Shown here: positions 23,107-32,007 of the stretch, piece after piece
How positions within the stretch are numbered: position 1 is the stretch's first letter
Layout of the letters: each line of letters begins with the position of its first letter
Source of the DNA: Escherichia phage vB-Eco-KMB40
Length of the DNA: 64,000 bases
Sequence record: OR539220.1
Direction: 5' to 3' (one strand)
The notes under the pieces: model-generated
What the model saw: the letters and a program-made list of their open reading frames with translations, nothing else
What the model was told of the DNA's origin: nothing
The model's database searches: none
Program-made: the position numbers and the translations under genes

Positions 23107-25164
23107 CTACATTTTGAACTTTTTAGACATTCCGTTGATGTTAACCAAAGAAGCTAAGATTTGAGAAACTTCGTTTTCCTCTTCTTTTGATTCTTCTACA
23201 AGGAATTGATTAAATCCAGCCATTGGACGAACTTCGCCAGTTTCCATTAGATGGTCGCCATCATATACTGATTCTTCTAATTGTTCAGAAGGAGGAACGA
23301 TTGTACCTTCGATTAGATACTTGTTATAAGCAGTTTCTTTCATAAAGTAAGTACTTACTTTATTAATCTTCAGTAAAATTCCACGTGGTAGAATAACTTC
23401 AGCTTCTGATGGAAATCCTGACAAATGACCTGGAACGATAACTTTAACTCGTTCAGCTCCTTTAATTACCATACCCACGCTAGTTTCAGCATCTTCATTA
23501 GCATATGTAGAATGACTACCCATATGCATCAAATCTTCTGCATCAACGGAACCTTCTCCTTCACCAGAAAATACTGCTCCGGAATTATCTAAGGCCATAT
23601 AATTTTTACCATACTCACCAAAGATATTTGGTTTAAGTGATGTCGATACGAAGTTCTTGAAATAGAACATTTTATTTTCAATGTTATGACGCAAAGTTTT
23701 AAAAGTAACTTCTTGTCCACGGTAAAGTGTAGTTCCTGGAGGAAGAACTGAACCTTTAGCGAATGCAGAATCCAGCGTCTCAATATGTTTAATAGCTCGT
23801 TCCATATATTCTTCACGTGTAGAATCAGGTTTACCTAAAAGGAATGAGTTCATTTCAACATACGAATCTGCGCAATAATCTTCAATTACATCAGACTCAG
23901 CCTGAGTCAATCCTTTTGGAGTTACTTCAGTGCTTGCATATTCATATGCCTGAGCAGCAGATTCATCAATTAATTTATAAATTCCATTCATTACAAATTG
24001 AATAATAGCTGTCTTTTCATCTGGTGTAGCTTTAGAACCTTTAACTAAATCATTGATAATTTTCTTAATAACATCAAAACTATTAGAAATATTAATATCA
24101 GCAAGATCACTTAAAATTTTATCAGTTTTATAATCAAAGAATTCTTTATTCTTTAAATATTCTTGAGAACCTTGATATGTTATATCGCTCTGCAGCTTGA
24201 TAGATGGATCGCGTAAACGTGCATGGGCCAATGCAATATGATTTCGGAAGCTTTCGAGTTCATAATCACTAGATTTAAAACGAGAAGCACTTCTCATACC
24301 ACCGATAGCTCCTTTGCTAAAGTTTGAACCAACCTGAATAACGCCAGAGTTCATTGGTCCTTCTGCTTTATATACCGGAACTTTAGATTCAAACTCTTGA
24401 TATTTCTTAGCAGCGAAGCTATCACCCTGAAGTGAAGCATCAACAGTAGAATATTGAGCTTGCGCTGCTAATCGACGACTAATTTTAGTTTTCTGAATAA
24501 CAGCTTGATCCGTGCGCTTATCATTTTCTAAAGCAATAGAAGCAGCAACAGCAACAGCTTTAGGAACAGCATTACCTGTTTTAACGTCTACATAAACATC
24601 ACCAACCTTTGATTCAACTTTTGTGAATAACTCGGTTGAAATAGGAGGTACACCTGGAATGTCTTCTAAATTGGCATTTTTACGGTAAACCATAATATAT
24701 GCGTACTTTTTATCATAATCCCAGATTTCCTTTAAAAGAACATATCGACCTGCTCCTTTAGTACGTACTAAACGGTCAGCAATAACTTGCATTTGCCGAG
24801 CAGCGCCATTTGTTTTACTTTTTAGTACGCGGAATAAGCATGCATCAATTTTATACTGTTTCATTGTTTGAAGAGCAGTATCAAAAACAGCATTAATGAC
24901 GCCAATTGGATTTCCACCCAAGTTTTTAAGCTTAACTAATGATAGTTTCTCATTAACACCTATCATTACGATATGCATCATTTTGTCGCCTGGCTTAACG
25001 TTTTTATTCGTATCACCGCCAGAGGTGTATGTACAAAATCTAAATCCAGGAAGCACGCTTTCTTCACCTGCTTGAATAGCAAAAATTTGAGGTATTTTAT
25101 GCTTAGGATTTAAGTTAACAACCGGCGCCGAAGCGCCGTCAAATAATTCTGTAATAAGTTCCAT
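23107..25164 (-). CDS. Alt-family ADP-ribosyltransferase paralog (685 aa)
   Basis: N-terminus MELITELFD shared with upstream paralog; C-terminal R-S-ExE ART motifs: TLYRGQ, FVSTSL, SEAEVILPRG. Confidence 0.8.
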   Translation of the reverse strand: MELITELFDGASAPVVNLNPKHKIPQIFAIQAGEESVLPGFRFCTYTSGGDTNKNVKPGDKMMHIVMIGVNEKLSLVKLKNLGGNPIGVINAVFDTALQTMKQYKIDACLFRVLKSKTNGAARQMQVIADRLVRTKGAGRYVLLKEIWDYDKKYAYIMVYRKNANLEDIPGVPPISTELFTKVESKVGDVYVDVKTGNAVPKAVAVAASIALENDKRTDQAVIQKTKISRRLAAQAQYSTVDASLQGDSFAAKKYQEFESKVPVYKAEGPMNSGVIQVGSNFSKGAIGGMRSASRFKSSDYELESFRNHIALAHARLRDPSIKLQSDITYQGSQEYLKNKEFFDYKTDKILSDLADINISNSFDVIKKIINDLVKGSKATPDEKTAIIQFVMNGIYKLIDESAAQAYEYASTEVTPKGLTQAESDVIEDYCADSYVEMNSFLLGKPDSTREEYMERAIKHIETLDSAFAKGSVLPPGTTLYRGQEVTFKTLRHNIENKMFYFKNFVSTSLKPNIFGEYGKNYMALDNSGAVFSGEGEGSVDAEDLMHMGSHSTYANEDAETSVGMVIKGAERVKVIVPGHLSGFPSEAEVILPRGILLKINKVSTYFMKETAYNKYLIEGTIVPPSEQLEESVYDGDHLMETGEVRPMAGFNQFLVEESKEEENEVSQILASLVNINGMSKKFKM

Positions 25165-25167
25165 GAT

Positions 25168-27261
25168 TTATCCTTGAACGAACTTGTAAGGCATGTTTGT
25201 AATATCTATGCAAGACGCAATAATTCCAAGAGATGATTCTACTTTCTGTTTAATATTTGATGAAACAAATGATGCAAAGTCAACTCTGTCTTCTATTTCA
25301 ATATCACCTGTCATTGCAACCAATTCACCAGTTTCCATTAAATGGTCTCCATCATAGATTACCGATTCGGTGAGCTCTTCCGTGGTCATAACTTCAGCTT
25401 GAATGAGTTTTGTATTATTAGATGTTGTTCCGTCATTATTAGAAGCATCGGTTATTTTATTAACTTTGACCATCAATCCACGCGGTAGAATAACTTCAGC
25501 TTCTGTTGCTATTCCGAGACTTCCTGGATATACAACATTAACTTTATGAGCTCCATCAATTGCCCATCCTATTTGAACTTTAACATATTCAGGATTTTCT
25601 TTATACGCTCTTATTTCGTTTGGATTAATAGTTATTCCTTCTTCATTTTTATCAACTGTTAATTCATTGCGAGCTTCTGGTTCTAAAAGACCAATACCAG
25701 CATGTGTGATTCCAAAACGTCCAAAAATGATAGGAGTTAAAGAAGTAGATACAAAATTTCTGAAGTAGAACACTTTATTTTTAACTAACGCTTCATATAT
25801 AGGAGCAGTCATACTTTGAGCACGATAAACTGTAATGCCTTCTGGTATACGGTCACCATTTTCAAAAGCTGAATCTAAATTATTTATAGCAGATTCAATT
25901 TCTTTTTCACTCATTATATCATATCGTTCTGGATTGTAACGACCTAAAAGAAGATTATTGATGTCTGTATATCCTGAACCACAATACTCTCTAATGCCGC
26001 GCTTTTGTGATGGAGTATATTTAGAACCATCACGGGCAATAGTAATATCAATCATTGGACCTGCACAAATTCCGGAAAAGCTATAAATCATTCGTTTGAG
26101 GAATTTAGTTTTTGCTGCATTCCAGGCATTTTTAGTTATTTCTCCCCAGACTTCATCTGGCTGCCCTTTACGAGTTTTATTATGTTTATCAAGCCAATTA
26201 TCTTTATATTCTTCAAATAATTGATTAACAGCTGCTGCGTATTTCTCTAAACATTTTATTGAAGTAGTTGGTTCATTTTTAATCGCATTAAGAATTACAT
26301 CTTTAATTTTTTCTGAAACTTCATCAACCTCACTTTTTGAAAAGAATTTATAGTCATAGTGAAGTTCATTCGCAGTTCCTTCAGCAATAATTTTTGCTGC
26401 CTTTGTTTTAGAAGCTAATGAATTAATTCCAATTTTCATTTCTTCTGCTTCGGGAATTAAAGGTGCAGTAGCTGGTTTATTAAAATTAGCTGCTGTAGAT
26501 TCATACTTCTGGAATAATTCACTTTCAAATCTAGAAGATTCCAATGACTGACTTTGTGCAATTGCTCTACGGGAAATTTTAACTTTAACGATTACAGCTT
26601 GATCAGAACGTTTATCATTTTCTTGTGCAATTGATGCTGCAATTGCCTCATTTTTAGTTACTTGAGCTCCAGTATCTTTATTGATATAAACATCACCGAC
26701 CTTCGATTCAACTTTAGTAAAAAGCTCGGTACTAATTTCCGGAACTCCTGGAATGTCTTCTAGTGATACATTTTTGCGATGTATAAGAATATATGCGTAC
26801 TTTTTATCATAATCCCAGAGTTCCTTAAGAAGGACGTATCTGCCACCTGAACGACTACGGATAAGTCTATCAGCAATAACTTGAATTTGTCGAGCTTGAC
26901 CAGCGGTTTTAGACTTAAGAATACGAAGCATGCAGGCATCAATTTTATACTGACGCATTGTTTGCATTGCAACAGTAAAAACTGAATTGATATAATTAAT
27001 TGGGCTTGGACCAAGACCTTTTAATTTGGCAATTGAACCTTTAGCAGTTAATGTAAAAGGAACAATATGCATCATTTTATCGCCCATCTTTAAATCGCGA
27101 TTAGTATCACCTCCAGATGTATAGGTACATAAACGAAAGCCTGGTTGTTCAATTGCATCATCAACATGAACTGAAAAAATTTGTGGTATTTTCTTCTTTG
27201 GATTTAAGTTTGTAATCGGAAGAGTAGTATCTTCGTCAAATAATTCTGTAATAAGTTCCAT
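25168..27261 (-). CDS. alt: Alt ADP-ribosyltransferase (697 aa)
   Basis: N-terminus MELITELFDEDTTLPITNL as remembered for T4 Alt; ART motifs TVYRAQ, FVSTSL, TEAEVILPRG. Confidence 0.8.
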   Translation of the reverse strand: MELITELFDEDTTLPITNLNPKKKIPQIFSVHVDDAIEQPGFRLCTYTSGGDTNRDLKMGDKMMHIVPFTLTAKGSIAKLKGLGPSPINYINSVFTVAMQTMRQYKIDACMLRILKSKTAGQARQIQVIADRLIRSRSGGRYVLLKELWDYDKKYAYILIHRKNVSLEDIPGVPEISTELFTKVESKVGDVYINKDTGAQVTKNEAIAASIAQENDKRSDQAVIVKVKISRRAIAQSQSLESSRFESELFQKYESTAANFNKPATAPLIPEAEEMKIGINSLASKTKAAKIIAEGTANELHYDYKFFSKSEVDEVSEKIKDVILNAIKNEPTTSIKCLEKYAAAVNQLFEEYKDNWLDKHNKTRKGQPDEVWGEITKNAWNAAKTKFLKRMIYSFSGICAGPMIDITIARDGSKYTPSQKRGIREYCGSGYTDINNLLLGRYNPERYDIMSEKEIESAINNLDSAFENGDRIPEGITVYRAQSMTAPIYEALVKNKVFYFRNFVSTSLTPIIFGRFGITHAGIGLLEPEARNELTVDKNEEGITINPNEIRAYKENPEYVKVQIGWAIDGAHKVNVVYPGSLGIATEAEVILPRGLMVKVNKITDASNNDGTTSNNTKLIQAEVMTTEELTESVIYDGDHLMETGELVAMTGDIEIEDRVDFASFVSSNIKQKVESSLGIIASCIDITNMPYKFVQG

Positions 27262-27317: not shown

Positions 27318-27503
27318 TTAATAGAGAGCTAAAAGAGTACGATATACTTCAAACTTTGGACCTTTTTCATAGGCATCAAATGTTTCTGTGAATTTATTAT
27401 AAGCATATGCATCTATAAATTCAATCATGATTTGTGATACAGAAGTAGAAACATCTCCACCTTCTTTTTGAGCCACGACAATTGTTTCTAAGTAAGCTTT
27501 CAT
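27318..27503 (-). CDS. Hypothetical 61-aa protein
   Basis: Start overlaps ligase stop (ATGA-type coupling); followed by hairpin 27298-27315. Confidence 0.4.
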   Translation of the reverse strand: MKAYLETIVVAQKEGGDVSTSVSQIMIEFIDAYAYNKFTETFDAYEKGPKFEVYRTLLALY

Positions 27504-28963
27504 AAACCAGTTACCTCATGAAAATCACCAAATACATCTTCGAATGTATTAGCTTTAGTTTTATCTTCGCGTAAACGAATCGCAATTGGAAGAAATAGCT
27601 TAACGTAATCAGTACGTCCATCTAATTTTACCCAGCCGTTGCATTCGCACTCTAGAATTTTTCCAATATAATAATTTTGGTTTTCCATAATGCGAGTACG
27701 ATCAAGTTCATGCGATTTTATACCGGCTTTATCTTTTAAGCCTGAACCAGCATTTACTTTAATTTTTCCACACTCTGATTCAAGAATGAAACCACCTGCT
27801 TTAGTAGGGTCTTTACGGTGAGGATAAATTCCTACAATTTTTAAATCAACATCAATTACTTCTTTAAATTTATAAAGATTTTTTGAACGAGCATTTTCCC
27901 ATAATCCATCGATATTTTTAAGAATAATACCTTCAAGACCTTGGTCAATATACTTTTTATAAATTACCTTAGCTTCATCTAGGTTATTTACTACTTGGTT
28001 TTCAATTAAAATTACTTTATCATAGCCTGATGTCATTTGTTCTAGTTTAGAAAAACGTACATCATATTTTAAACGAAATGCTGGAAGACCATATATTTCT
28101 ACTAATGGAACATAGTCCCAGACCTGAAACTTCATGCATTGTGCTTCTTTTTCAGAAATGGTTCCCTTTAAAGATTTATTAGCGATTCCATTAGAAGTAG
28201 TACGTGATTCAGCTACTTCGGCGAATTCTTTAGCTTTACTAATTTCAGGATAAGCATCAAAAAGAAAATCTAGGCCTTCTGGTTCCTTTTTAACTTGCTC
28301 ATGGTATACCAATTCGCCATCAATTAACACACCTTCTGGATGAATCTGGCGAGCTTCTGCAGTCATTTTGATTAACTCTTCCTTGAGAAGATCTAATCCT
28401 AGATATTCATTACCAGCTCGTGATAAAAGACGAACATCATCTAATTCATCACCTCTGACTTCAGCAAAACAGCGAGCTCCATCAGCTTTTAGCTGTGCAA
28501 AGGCTGGAAATTTGATATTCTTATTAATGCCTTTTTCGTCATAAGAACTTGCTAGCATTTGAGGTTGTTCAGGAATTAAACCTGGCCAAACTTTGTTTGC
28601 AATAGATACTGATGCACCGCATTCAAGGTCTCGCATCATCACCCGACGCAAAACTTCAACATCATCTTTTTTACCGTCAGTAATATATCCAGTTAATTCC
28701 TCAATTGCCGCATTTCCAGTCAATTTCCGAGTAGCTAACGTGAATTCAATGAAGTCAAGCATATCGGTAAGAGTCAACATTCCAAAACTCTGGGTAGTAA
28801 TACCCGGTTTAGGCCATTTCTTGATATAATACTGTAACCCACGAGAATAAGTCAGACGATATACTCGTTTAAGCAATTCATTATCTTTATTCTTTTCAAG
28901 AATTGCTTGCTTCTGCTTAGTTGAACCAATAGATGCTATTTCGTTCAGAATTTTAAGAATCAT
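27500..28963 (-). CDS. 30: ATP-dependent DNA ligase gp30
   Basis: 487 aa as T4 ligase; adenylation motif KADGAR; N-terminus MILKILNEIASIGSTKQK. Confidence 0.9.
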   Translation of the reverse strand: MILKILNEIASIGSTKQKQAILEKNKDNELLKRVYRLTYSRGLQYYIKKWPKPGITTQSFGMLTLTDMLDFIEFTLATRKLTGNAAIEELTGYITDGKKDDVEVLRRVMMRDLECGASVSIANKVWPGLIPEQPQMLASSYDEKGINKNIKFPAFAQLKADGARCFAEVRGDELDDVRLLSRAGNEYLGLDLLKEELIKMTAEARQIHPEGVLIDGELVYHEQVKKEPEGLDFLFDAYPEISKAKEFAEVAESRTTSNGIANKSLKGTISEKEAQCMKFQVWDYVPLVEIYGLPAFRLKYDVRFSKLEQMTSGYDKVILIENQVVNNLDEAKVIYKKYIDQGLEGIILKNIDGLWENARSKNLYKFKEVIDVDLKIVGIYPHRKDPTKAGGFILESECGKIKVNAGSGLKDKAGIKSHELDRTRIMENQNYYIGKILECECNGWVKLDGRTDYVKLFLPIAIRLREDKTKANTFEDVFGDFHEVTGL

Positions 28964-29229
28964 TGTTCATCCTTTAGAGTTTGGTTTACAGCTCTATTAT
29001 AAATCAATTCATCATTAAGCTCAGTCAAAGACCTGTGATACGTGGTTCTAACTTTATTTCCTTGCATCCAGTGCTTGACATAAATGAAACCTTGCTCTAC
29101 ACATTTTTTAAAAATTCGTTCGTCTTTTTGAGCTCGGAATTCTGGATTGCATCTAAAAAATTGATTTACGTGACCGTAATCACGTGTAGTATTACCTTCA
29201 TTTTCATAAATAGTGTGAACGACAAACAT
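28960..29229 (-). CDS. Hypothetical protein (30.1 position)
   Basis: 89 aa ORF translationally coupled to ligase. Confidence 0.5.
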   Translation of the reverse strand: MFVVHTIYENEGNTTRDYGHVNQFFRCNPEFRAQKDERIFKKCVEQGFIYVKHWMQGNKVRTTYHRSLTELNDELIYNRAVNQTLKDEQ

Positions 29230-30065
29230 TAGAATGCTCCTTGGAAAATATTATCACCACTAGTAGGTCTATTATACAAATACTCTATGCCACCGGGTTT
29301 AATATAGTTCCATGTCTGAAACGGATGCGTCTGATATGGATGATATAGATTATAAGGATTAAATCCAGGAGTTCTCCAGGTAGTGTTCCAAGGAAAAGAA
29401 TCGTTTTTAATCATCTTTTCAATTACATCTTTTATAGCTTTTTCACTATCAAAACTTTCTTTATTTTCATTCGATGGAAAAAGCTTATTCTCTACATCAT
29501 TCCATGTATAAACTCGCTGTGCAGTTTTTGGAATATTGTCACGCTCTCCTCGAGCCATCCAATAAACAGGAACATTTAATATTTCACTCGCATGATCGCA
29601 GTGGTGAGCGAGATCGTCAATATAACAAATTACGTTATATTTCTCTTTTGCCTTTTTGAACAACTCTTCTTTTGAAGAATCATGACCACACATCAATACT
29701 TCTGAGAAGGCATCAGGAAAAAGAGCATTCAAATTAAATTGACGATTCAGCAGAGCGTCAATAGAATCACCCAGTGCTGTAACAGCTACAAAATTATAAT
29801 CTTCTTTTAATTTGTTAATTACACACAGGGCATCTTTATATGGAGACAAATAGCGAATAAAATCTGAACGATTATACTTTTCGATTAATTTAACACCAAG
29901 TTCTTCATCGCAATTAAAGAGCTTACCAGGAGAAATAAATTTTTCGTCCTGAATCATTTTTAAAATATGTTCCAACGGAAGATTATATTTTTGGGCAAAA
30001 TAAGGAAGGCCTGATTGCCAGCTTAAACATACACCATCAATATCAGTCAAAATAGTAGGCTTCAT
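29229..30065 (-). CDS. HAD-superfamily hydrolase-like protein (30.2 position)
   Basis: 278 aa; N-terminal ILTDIDGV matches HAD motif I (DxDG). Confidence 0.6.
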   Translation of the reverse strand: MKPTILTDIDGVCLSWQSGLPYFAQKYNLPLEHILKMIQDEKFISPGKLFNCDEELGVKLIEKYNRSDFIRYLSPYKDALCVINKLKEDYNFVAVTALGDSIDALLNRQFNLNALFPDAFSEVLMCGHDSSKEELFKKAKEKYNVICYIDDLAHHCDHASEILNVPVYWMARGERDNIPKTAQRVYTWNDVENKLFPSNENKESFDSEKAIKDVIEKMIKNDSFPWNTTWRTPGFNPYNLYHPYQTHPFQTWNYIKPGGIEYLYNRPTSGDNIFQGAF

Positions 30066-30526
30066 AGAGAGTCTCTTAATAGGTTTAACACATCAATAAA
30101 TTCAACTTCGGTTAGTATTGTATCATCTTTTGTTAGACCACTAGCCATGCTATGCTTCAAAATTTTTCCTTTTGAGGCTTGTAAGGCATCACGAAACCCC
30201 TTGTTTTGGATCGCTGCTTCAAAATATGCATTTGTATACAATTCTTTCCACGCTGGGGAGTATCTTGAAAATGGAACTCCGAGCCAGAAGAGGGTCCCAC
30301 GGTCCGCAGCTCTTGCATAAGACCTTCCAGCTTGTTGGGCGGCAAGCCCGGATAACCCAAATATACGTCTTTGCTGCTCAACATTTTTCACCTTGCATCC
30401 TTGGAGGAATCCTTCAAGACCTCCGAATTGAATACCATCCATGACGAAAGGCCATTGGGCGAAATTACTTAATGCGCATGATGGCCATCTAAAATTGCTT
30501 CTAATCTCTAACTCAGACATTTTCAA
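30062..30526 (-). CDS. NADAR/YbiA-like domain protein (30.3 position)
   Basis: 154 aa; LSNFAQWPFVMDGIQF resembles the NADAR (DUF1768) LSNFAAWP...DG core of E. coli YbiA. Confidence 0.6.
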   Translation of the reverse strand: MKMSELEIRSNFRWPSCALSNFAQWPFVMDGIQFGGLEGFLQGCKVKNVEQQRRIFGLSGLAAQQAGRSYARAADRGTLFWLGVPFSRYSPAWKELYTNAYFEAAIQNKGFRDALQASKGKILKHSMASGLTKDDTILTEVEFIDVLNLLRDSL

Positions 30527-30719
30527 TACTTATAATTTCAACATCAGCCCAATGACCATAGCAAGGAAGACGAAATTCAACTGGCCAGTTAGGGTCCTTT
30601 TCTAATATAATAGACTTAACTTGTGGTTCTTCATGTTCATCAGTATATGGATTTTTATCTGTTACTTTATATGTGACCTTAATGTATTGAATTCCAAAAA
30701 TCTTATTAATTATATTCAT
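30513..30719 (-). CDS. Hypothetical protein
   Basis: 68 aa ORF in overlapping early-gene string. Confidence 0.45.
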   Translation of the reverse strand: MNIINKIFGIQYIKVTYKVTDKNPYTDEHEEPQVKSIILEKDPNWPVEFRLPCYGHWADVEIISIENV

Positions 30720-31674: not shown

Positions 31675-32007
31675 TTATTTTACTACTTTCCAGTGTTGCA
31701 TGTCAAGTTTACCGACTTTTTTCATCTTCTCAATTAAGCGTTCGGCACGTTGGCGAGCTGTAACATAATGCCATTCGCCTAATTCATTTTGTTCAATTTT
31801 TCCAACGATTACTGTATTCAATTCATAAATCCAACCAGTAAAGAAATTATGAACTTGAATTGTAAAGGTGAAATCTGTTCCCATACCTTCTGTTGTTTCT
31901 ACTTCAATAATATCACCTTCAACTGCCATTAAGAACCACATAGTTTCATCATATTTACCATTGAAGCATTTAGTTTTAACTGCAGCGTTCAGATTAATCG
32001 TTTTCAT
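31675..32007 (-). CDS. Hypothetical protein
   Basis: 110 aa ORF. Confidence 0.5.
   Translation of the reverse strand: MKTINLNAAVKTKCFNGKYDETMWFLMAVEGDIIEVETTEGMGTDFTFTIQVHNFFTGWIYELNTVIVGKIEQNELGEWHYVTARQRAERLIEKMKKVGKLDMQHWKVVK

Follow-up and report, generated by a model that had tools for sequence, protein, structure and literature searches.

Gene 30.3 of phage T4 was renamed adfN by Johannesman et al. (Nat Commun 2025, PMC11825919), in whose work it proved both necessary and sufficient for resistance to DarTG1. T4 AdfN strips ADP-ribose off DNA in vitro, is weakened by the substitutions E36A and K43A at residues reported to be catalytic, is ineffective against the thymidine-specific DarTG2 and fails to neutralise DarT1 in uninfected cells (PMC11825919). 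The inactive RB69 allele has lost its C-terminal helix through a frameshift, and the phage is DarTG1-sensitive (PMC11825919). The activity of phage gp30.3 is guanine-specific in vitro (Toxins 2024, PMC11125620), and the role of T4 adfN against DarTG1 was confirmed by transposon sequencing (Tn-seq) in the 2025 HIDEN-SEQ preprint. Here we describe the equivalent locus in a 64,000-nucleotide stretch of Escherichia phage vB-Eco-KMB40 (OR539220.1; the window), where gene 30.3 (adfN; 30062–30520, minus strand) adjoins gene 30.2 (29229–30065, minus strand), which encodes a protein of 278 residues made up of a predicted HAD-superfamily phosphatase domain and a disordered C-terminal tail. An earlier note on this sequence had put the two genes forward as a counter-defence pair. 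We favour, at a probability of roughly 0.85, a different reading in which gp30.3 is AdfN, gp30.2 is a separate HAD phosphomonoesterase and the two genes are neighbours by synteny.

NADARs associated with DarG1/DarT1 (Geobacter lovleyi, 8bat) have the fold and the guanine de-ADP-ribosylation reaction in common with AdfN, whereas AdfN is an orphan and lacks an N-terminal extension. Escherichia coli YbiA (2b3w), the founding member of NADAR/COG3236, shares the SNFAxWP...E...K motif with gp30.3, but the two are only about 19% identical and YbiA is placed in a different NADAR subfamily (PMC11125620). One position is His in AdfN, Asp in DarG1-type and Glu in YbiA-type NADARs (PMC11125620).

Gene 30.3 compared with T4 adfN and other NADARs

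The 1.9-kb region around the two genes is 97–99.9% identical to hundreds of Tequatrovirus genomes, and by its sequence the source of the window is a T4-like (Tequatrovirus) phage. Open reading frames (ORFs) were verified at 30062–30526 and 29229–30065, both on the minus strand. The former, which includes LSNFAQWPFVMDG, opens mechanically at a TTG (30526), and an ATG two codons on (30520) gives 152 residues, the length of T4 gp30.3; we take this ATG, not the TTG, as the true start of 30.3. Counted from there, the window protein is of equal length to T4 gp30.3, occupies the same genomic position and is identical to it at 148 of 152 residues (97%). The four substitutions (window to T4: A72Q, I120V, M124I and V138A) leave the reported catalytic positions unaffected. 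E36 and K43 (E38 and K45 in numbering from the TTG) are invariant in nine family members, down to 39% identity. The His of the LKHS segment (H123, or H125 from the TTG) is likewise invariant, and is the state reported for the phage clade (PMC11125620). The C-terminal helix is complete, the ORF continuing through FIDVLNLLRDSL; in RB69 it ends at TILT. The catalytic E36/K43, the clade-specific His of the last strand and the complete C-terminal helix are therefore all held in common with T4 AdfN.

From this 97% identity, orthology and conservation of the catalytic residues we infer that window gp30.3 is an AdfN-type guanine-specific DNA ADP-ribosylglycohydrolase. The host toxin DarT1 would ADP-ribosylate guanine in the phage DNA and so block replication; AdfN would hydrolyse the bond between guanine and ADP-ribose, whereupon ADP-ribose would be released and replication could resume.

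gp30.3 matches PF08010 (Phage_30_3) with an E-value of 2.5e-68 over model positions 1–138 of 138, and does not match the Pfam NADAR (DUF1768) model at E≤1; NCBIfam likewise yielded no NADAR match. A word-indexed homologue search returned 22 close relatives only, and therefore offered no bridge from 30.3 to cellular NADARs. Direct sequence searches of gp30.3 and gp30.2 against the PDB gave only noise. The profile built from nine gp30.3 family members has YbiA as its top PDB match (E 0.048), in an alignment that spans SNFAxWP...E...K and sets the Glu and Lys against the SEHYFQAQK segment of YbiA. The AlphaFold2 model of gp30.3 has a predicted local distance difference test score (pLDDT) of 82 and a predicted template modelling (TM) score of 0.81. 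Foldseek matched it with a probability of at least 0.99 to three PDB entries only, and all three are NADARs: YbiA (2b3w), the G. lovleyi protein (8bat) and that of Phytophthora nicotianae (8bau). The model thus has the YbiA-type fold, in which small sheets lie at the flanks of a helical core. YbiA is the best of these, with a TM-score of 0.65 and an E-value of 1.8e-4, and the remaining Foldseek matches are noise. The link between gp30.3 and the NADARs, as drawn from profile and modelled fold only, is thus one at the level of the superfamily.

The earlier note had seen a NADAR/YbiA-type core in this ORF, which both PF08010 and the fold matches bear out. It had also suggested reversal of DarT-type guanine ADP-ribosylation, an activity demonstrated for the 97%-identical T4 protein (PMC11825919, PMC11125620). 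The idea was correct but already known, because the experiments it called for, a challenge with DarTG-type defence and a de-ADP-ribosylation assay, had been done and published for T4 30.3. The anti-DarT role of 30.3 entered the literature in 2024–2025, and the window adds no new biology to it.

The window does not have the layout of a DarTG1 operon, with a NADAR gene beside a DarT toxin gene. Gene 30.3 is flanked by 30.4 and by the HAD gene 30.2, and the nearest ADP-ribosyltransferase genes, four and five genes downstream, are of the Alt type (PF03496), not DarT. gp30.3 is an orphan NADAR with no adjacent darT gene. An alternative frame within 30.3 (30157–30384, minus strand) holds a 75-residue ORF that is annotated as 30.3' in T4 and is open in both the window and T4. 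In RB69 this frame is broken, its longest open stretch being 40 residues. The frame is not conserved, and 30.3' may not be a real gene.

Predicted phosphatase domain and tail of gp30.2

The closest described folds to gp30.2, among the matches listed, are those of the mammalian cytosolic and mitochondrial 5'(3')-deoxyribonucleotidases cdN and mdN (NT5C; 2jao, 2i7d and 1q92), which combine a HAD core with a helical cap. The 30.2 ORF starts MKPTILTDIDGV; its product is identical to T4 gp30.2 at 270 of 278 residues and matches phrog_420 at an E-value of 1e-92. The HAD domain occupies residues 1–195 (29481–30065, minus strand), most of which are modelled by AlphaFold2 with pLDDT above 90. Its four motifs (I, D8-x-D10; II, T96; III, K132; IV, D150-D151) do not vary among 30 homologues with identities as low as 39%. 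In 63 more distant relatives D8 and D10 are still without variation, and conservation of K132 and D151 is 90% or more. In the model, helices spanning residues 16–72 are inserted after motif I to give a C1-type helical cap (residues ~12–75). An Asp at position +2 of HAD motif I denotes phosphotransferase chemistry, and a C1 cap a small-molecule substrate.

The HAD assignment in the earlier note, made from motif I, is borne out by the four motifs and by the modelled fold. Foldseek gave 59 PDB matches to gp30.2 at E≤1e-3; those listed, 50 in number, either belong to the HAD superfamily or are engineered enzymes built on its scaffold. Among the matches listed, the most compact superpositions are with 5'(3')-deoxyribonucleotidases (2jao, 2i7d, 1q92 and the bacterial relative 3bwv), at TMt 0.62–0.69 and a root mean square deviation of 4.6–5.9 Å; the mammalian enzymes lie at TMt 0.62–0.66. 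The family profile of gp30.2 also has cdN 2jao as its top PDB match, with a weak E-value of 0.67, and aligns W16 with the Phe that follows motif I. gp30.2 and cdN/mdN have in common both a DxDGV motif I and an aromatic residue eight positions past its first Asp. They differ in that identity is only 12–17% and that gp30.2 has an additional disordered tail, of 80 residues on this comparison. Moreover, gp30.2 is not filed as a member of NT5C (PF06941), because that model itself is unmatched.

Relatives of gp30.2 bridge part of this distance. An exhaustive profile search recovered 1,052 cluster representatives of the family, most of about 200 residues and mostly in phage-like contexts. Pfam matches among the 63 sampled distant relatives were to NT5C (19, best E 4.2e-10), PF00702 (10) and HAD_2 (PF13419; 9), and of the viral fold neighbours of gp30.2 most have no annotation or carry the label 5'-nucleotidase. 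Nothing specific to gp30.2, or to a deoxyribonucleotidase of T4, emerged from literature searches. We conclude, from its motifs and modelled fold, that gp30.2 is probably a capped HAD phosphomonoesterase of an NT5C-like branch. It would be a Mg-dependent enzyme, separate from AdfN, and would most likely dephosphorylate a (deoxy)nucleoside monophosphate or a similar small phospho-metabolite. The search with profile models that the earlier note had proposed for both proteins had a divided outcome: the Pfam NADAR and HAD models were unmatched at E≤1, and the two assignments were carried by PF08010, the profile searches, the predicted folds and the bridging relatives.

Beyond the phosphatase domain, residues 222–278 (~57 residues; 29232–29402, minus strand) form a Pro/Trp-rich tail with pLDDT below 50, which varies between clades and is absent from about a third of gp30.2 homologues. 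The peptide GIEYLYNRPT (residues 259–268; 29262–29291, minus strand) is its sole conserved block. Clade-specific terminal peptides occur on the tails of homologues P0023–P0097, namely GIEYLxxQPTA, DLRAYY or SLRATF, DYVLLNKVxANDS and TALLGMAxLPIITG. Such variation hints at tethering to a partner that co-evolves with the tail, and the conserved peptide of the disordered tail may, speculatively, serve to hold gp30.2 to it. The GIEYLY of the T4-type tail resembles the SLDFLF/Y at the C termini of T4 gp43 and gp55, which binds the gp45 clamp. On one unlikely reading, gp30.2 would act as a nucleotidase in its own right, held by its clade-specific C-terminal peptide to a partner that may be the sliding clamp. 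Binding of gp45 by the tail peptide found no support in RB69, whose gp30.2 tail has no GIEYLY-type motif, and the motifs of other clades are unrelated; it is kept as a weak idea of low probability.

The same peptide enters a rival account of the enzyme, in which gp30.2 would act as a phosphatase at DNA ends or nicks, making substrates ready for the ligase, whose gene lies two genes downstream, and would be recruited to gp45 through GIEYLY. The match between I-E-Y-L-Y and the clamp-binding L-D-F-L-F/Y of gp43 and gp55 is conservative at all five positions. A 30.2-like gene lies near ligase even where 30.3 is missing (contig L008, described below), the homologue in Pseudomonas phage Paride adjoins clamp-loader and polymerase genes, and there is a weak PHROG match to polynucleotide kinase/phosphatase (PNKP). 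However, the match of motifs was spotted post hoc, its final position is not aromatic in other clades, and neither the RB69 tail nor the unrelated terminal peptides of other clades fit recruitment by this motif. The modelled C1 cap, moreover, closes over the active site, as is typical of HAD enzymes that act on small molecules, whereas DNA-end phosphatases of the PNKP type have no such cap. T4 also already encodes a 3'-phosphatase, PseT. The HAD domain of PseT is, like gp30.2, a phage-encoded HAD phosphatase from a DNA-metabolism region, with weak PHROG similarity, but its substrates are the 3' ends of polynucleotides. It is also uncapped and joined to a kinase in one protein, whereas gp30.2 bears a cap and lacks any kinase domain. 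We consider a role at DNA ends improbable, and continue to favour a small phospho-metabolite as the substrate of gp30.2.

Genes 30.2 and 30.4 in relation to DarTG1 resistance

If 30.2 and 30.3 were a counter-defence pair, gp30.2 and AdfN would act jointly against ADP-ribosylating defence, gp30.2 being, for example, the T-even factor of AdfN or an enzyme that processes the product of de-ADP-ribosylation. In favour of this, the two genes adjoin, sharing ATGA as start and stop, and some 1,500 Straboviridae records contain both. T4 AdfN reportedly needs a T-even factor, and RB69, which fully supports AdfN, has 30.2. Sheet Data S6 of the HIDEN-SEQ supplement, which sets T4 transposon libraries on DarTG1 hosts against those on control hosts, largely refutes such a partnership. 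On DarTG1, insertions in 30.3 were lost (28 sites, log2 fold change -7.25, adjusted p 0), whereas those in 30.2 were neutral (71 sites, -0.12, adjusted p 1.0), as were those in 30.1 (21 sites, -0.01, adjusted p 1.0). Only two genes genome-wide are significant in this sheet, 30.3 and 30.4, and nudE is likewise neutral (log2 fold change 0.11). The candidacy of gp30.2 as a factor that potentiates AdfN was rejected on this table. Nor does the chemistry fit, since NADARs release ADP-ribose, in which a HAD phosphatase would find no phosphomonoester to cleave.

The two genes also part company outside the T-even core. We compared 11 such loci, comprising Brevundimonas phage Kabachok, Ralstonia phage RSP15, Paride and eight metagenomic contigs, some of only 2–4 kb. 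In every one of the 11, 30.2-like and 30.3-like genes occur apart: no 30.2-like gene lies within 5 kb of the gp30.3 homologue in Kabachok or RSP15, and the nine loci of the 30.2 family (Paride and the eight contigs) have no gp30.3-like gene within the sequence examined. One of them, the T4-like contig L008 from the European Nucleotide Archive metagenomes (6.8 kb), has, in this order, dCMP deaminase, a 30.2-like gene, a 191-residue ORF and ligase, with no gp30.3-like gene. The linkage of 30.2 with ligase thus persists in L008 without 30.3.

Because 30.2 is neutral by Tn-seq, because the genes separate outside the T-even core and because ADP-ribose offers no phosphomonoester, an obligate functional pair is not supported, and we regard joint action of gp30.2 and AdfN as very improbable. 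The two genes are, in our reading, neighbours by inherited synteny. The earlier note is consequently supported in part: its observation is confirmed and both the NADAR and the HAD calls were right, but the pairing of the two is unsupported.

gp30.2 might instead counter a different defence system by destroying a signal or trigger in the form of a phosphorylated nucleotide, for example the deoxynucleoside monophosphates (dNMPs) released by breakdown of host DNA. Defences triggered by dNMPs of this origin have been described (PMC12871103). Gene 30.2 is non-essential in T4, with insertions at 72 of 72 sites in the reference library, which is what an accessory or anti-defence gene would be expected to show, and the gp30.2 family is large, nearly confined to phages and fast-evolving. 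However, a housekeeping role in balancing nucleotide pools accounts for the same facts, and 30.2 does not appear in the HIDEN-SEQ main text, which names reported anti-defence hits. We therefore hold a counter-defence function of this kind to be improbable, and prefer for gp30.2 the role of a phosphomonoesterase independent of AdfN.

Several points weigh against this preferred reading. Genes 30.2 and 30.3 each occur in some 1,500 phage records and are spread over the genera in nearly the same way; we attribute this to common Straboviridae ancestry, although some looser functional link between them is conceivable. T4 AdfN is reported to need an additional T-even factor for full activity. Neutrality of 30.2 in one laboratory condition may leave room for a redundant or condition-specific contribution. 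gp30.2 itself matches no model of Pfam (cut-off E≤1) or NCBIfam, those for HAD and NT5C included, and the substrate predicted for it derives from its fold and from weak family links only.

Gene 30.4 (68 residues; 30513–30719, minus strand; phrog_2042), immediately upstream of adfN, is the one other gene with a significant effect on DarTG1 (log2 fold change -1.79, adjusted p 0.014). Neither the Nat Commun paper on AdfN nor the HIDEN-SEQ preprint comments on this hit. Gene 30.5 shows a downward trend (-3.0) that is not significant. The likeliest explanation for the depletion of 30.4 is a polar effect on adfN, because the 30.4 stop codon overlaps the ATG of adfN and because adfN, alone among the genes of the string, lacks a Shine–Dalgarno sequence within the preceding 20 nucleotides. 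Translational coupling of this kind would be expected to give a partial, polar depletion. The alternative, that gp30.4 is the T-even co-factor that AdfN reportedly requires, is unlikely. Gene 30.4 is restricted to the T-even core, with 720 records against 1,510 for 30.3, and the small genes that flank distant gp30.3 homologues bear no resemblance to it. Were gp30.4 a helper of AdfN, the real pair at this locus would be 30.4 and 30.3.

The gene string around adfN

Gene order in the window is identical to that of T4, running alt, alt.1, 30 (ligase), 30.1, 30.2, 30.3 and 30.4, and further on rIII, 31 and cd, all on the minus strand. Read in the direction of transcription, the conserved string is 30.7, 30.6, 30.5, 30.4, 30.3, 30.2, 30.1, 30 and alt. 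The earlier note had described an overlapping string that included ligase, and overlaps are indeed seen from 30.4 through 30: 8 nucleotides between 30.4 and 30.3 (ATGTCTGA), the ATGA shared by 30.3 and 30.2, TAATG between 30.2 and 30.1, and 4 nucleotides (ATGA) between 30.1 and 30. Its placement of the two genes immediately downstream of ligase does not hold. Transcription here follows the minus strand and places 30.3 and 30.2 upstream of gene 30, which encodes the ATP-dependent DNA ligase (27500–28963, minus strand; PF01068 and phrog_114). Nor are 30.2 and ligase directly adjacent, because 30.1 (DUF3045; 28960–29229, minus strand; PF11243, E 2.9e-64) separates them.

Just upstream of 30.7, the sequence TTGACA-18-TAAAAT (31677–31706, minus strand) matches at 11 of 12 positions and is the best σ70-like site of the region. 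It is a plausible early promoter for the string from 30.7 to 30; the scan for promoters and terminators was, overall, at chance level (24 sites against 23.3 expected).

The two ADP-ribosyltransferase genes named in the earlier note are indeed present, and lie downstream of ligase. They are full-length tandem Alt-like genes, both with PF03496: alt, for an Alt-like RNA polymerase ADP-ribosyltransferase of 697 residues (25168–27261, minus strand; PF03496, E 1.8e-37; phrog_802), and a second paralogue of 685 residues (23107–25164, minus strand; PF03496, E 6.8e-20). Reference T4 differs in having a single alt together with short remnants (alt.-1 and alt.-2) of a duplicated first part of alt.

In sum, the anti-DarT role of a NADAR was predicted correctly from raw sequence alone, in repetition of the published AdfN result (2024–2025). 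The reported T-even co-factor of AdfN, for which 30.4 is the only further significant hit of the screen, the substrate of gp30.2 and the partner of its tail each pose a modest, testable question and hold no surprise. gp30.2 is a conserved T4 enzyme, and stands for a family of more than 1,000 clusters of sequences.

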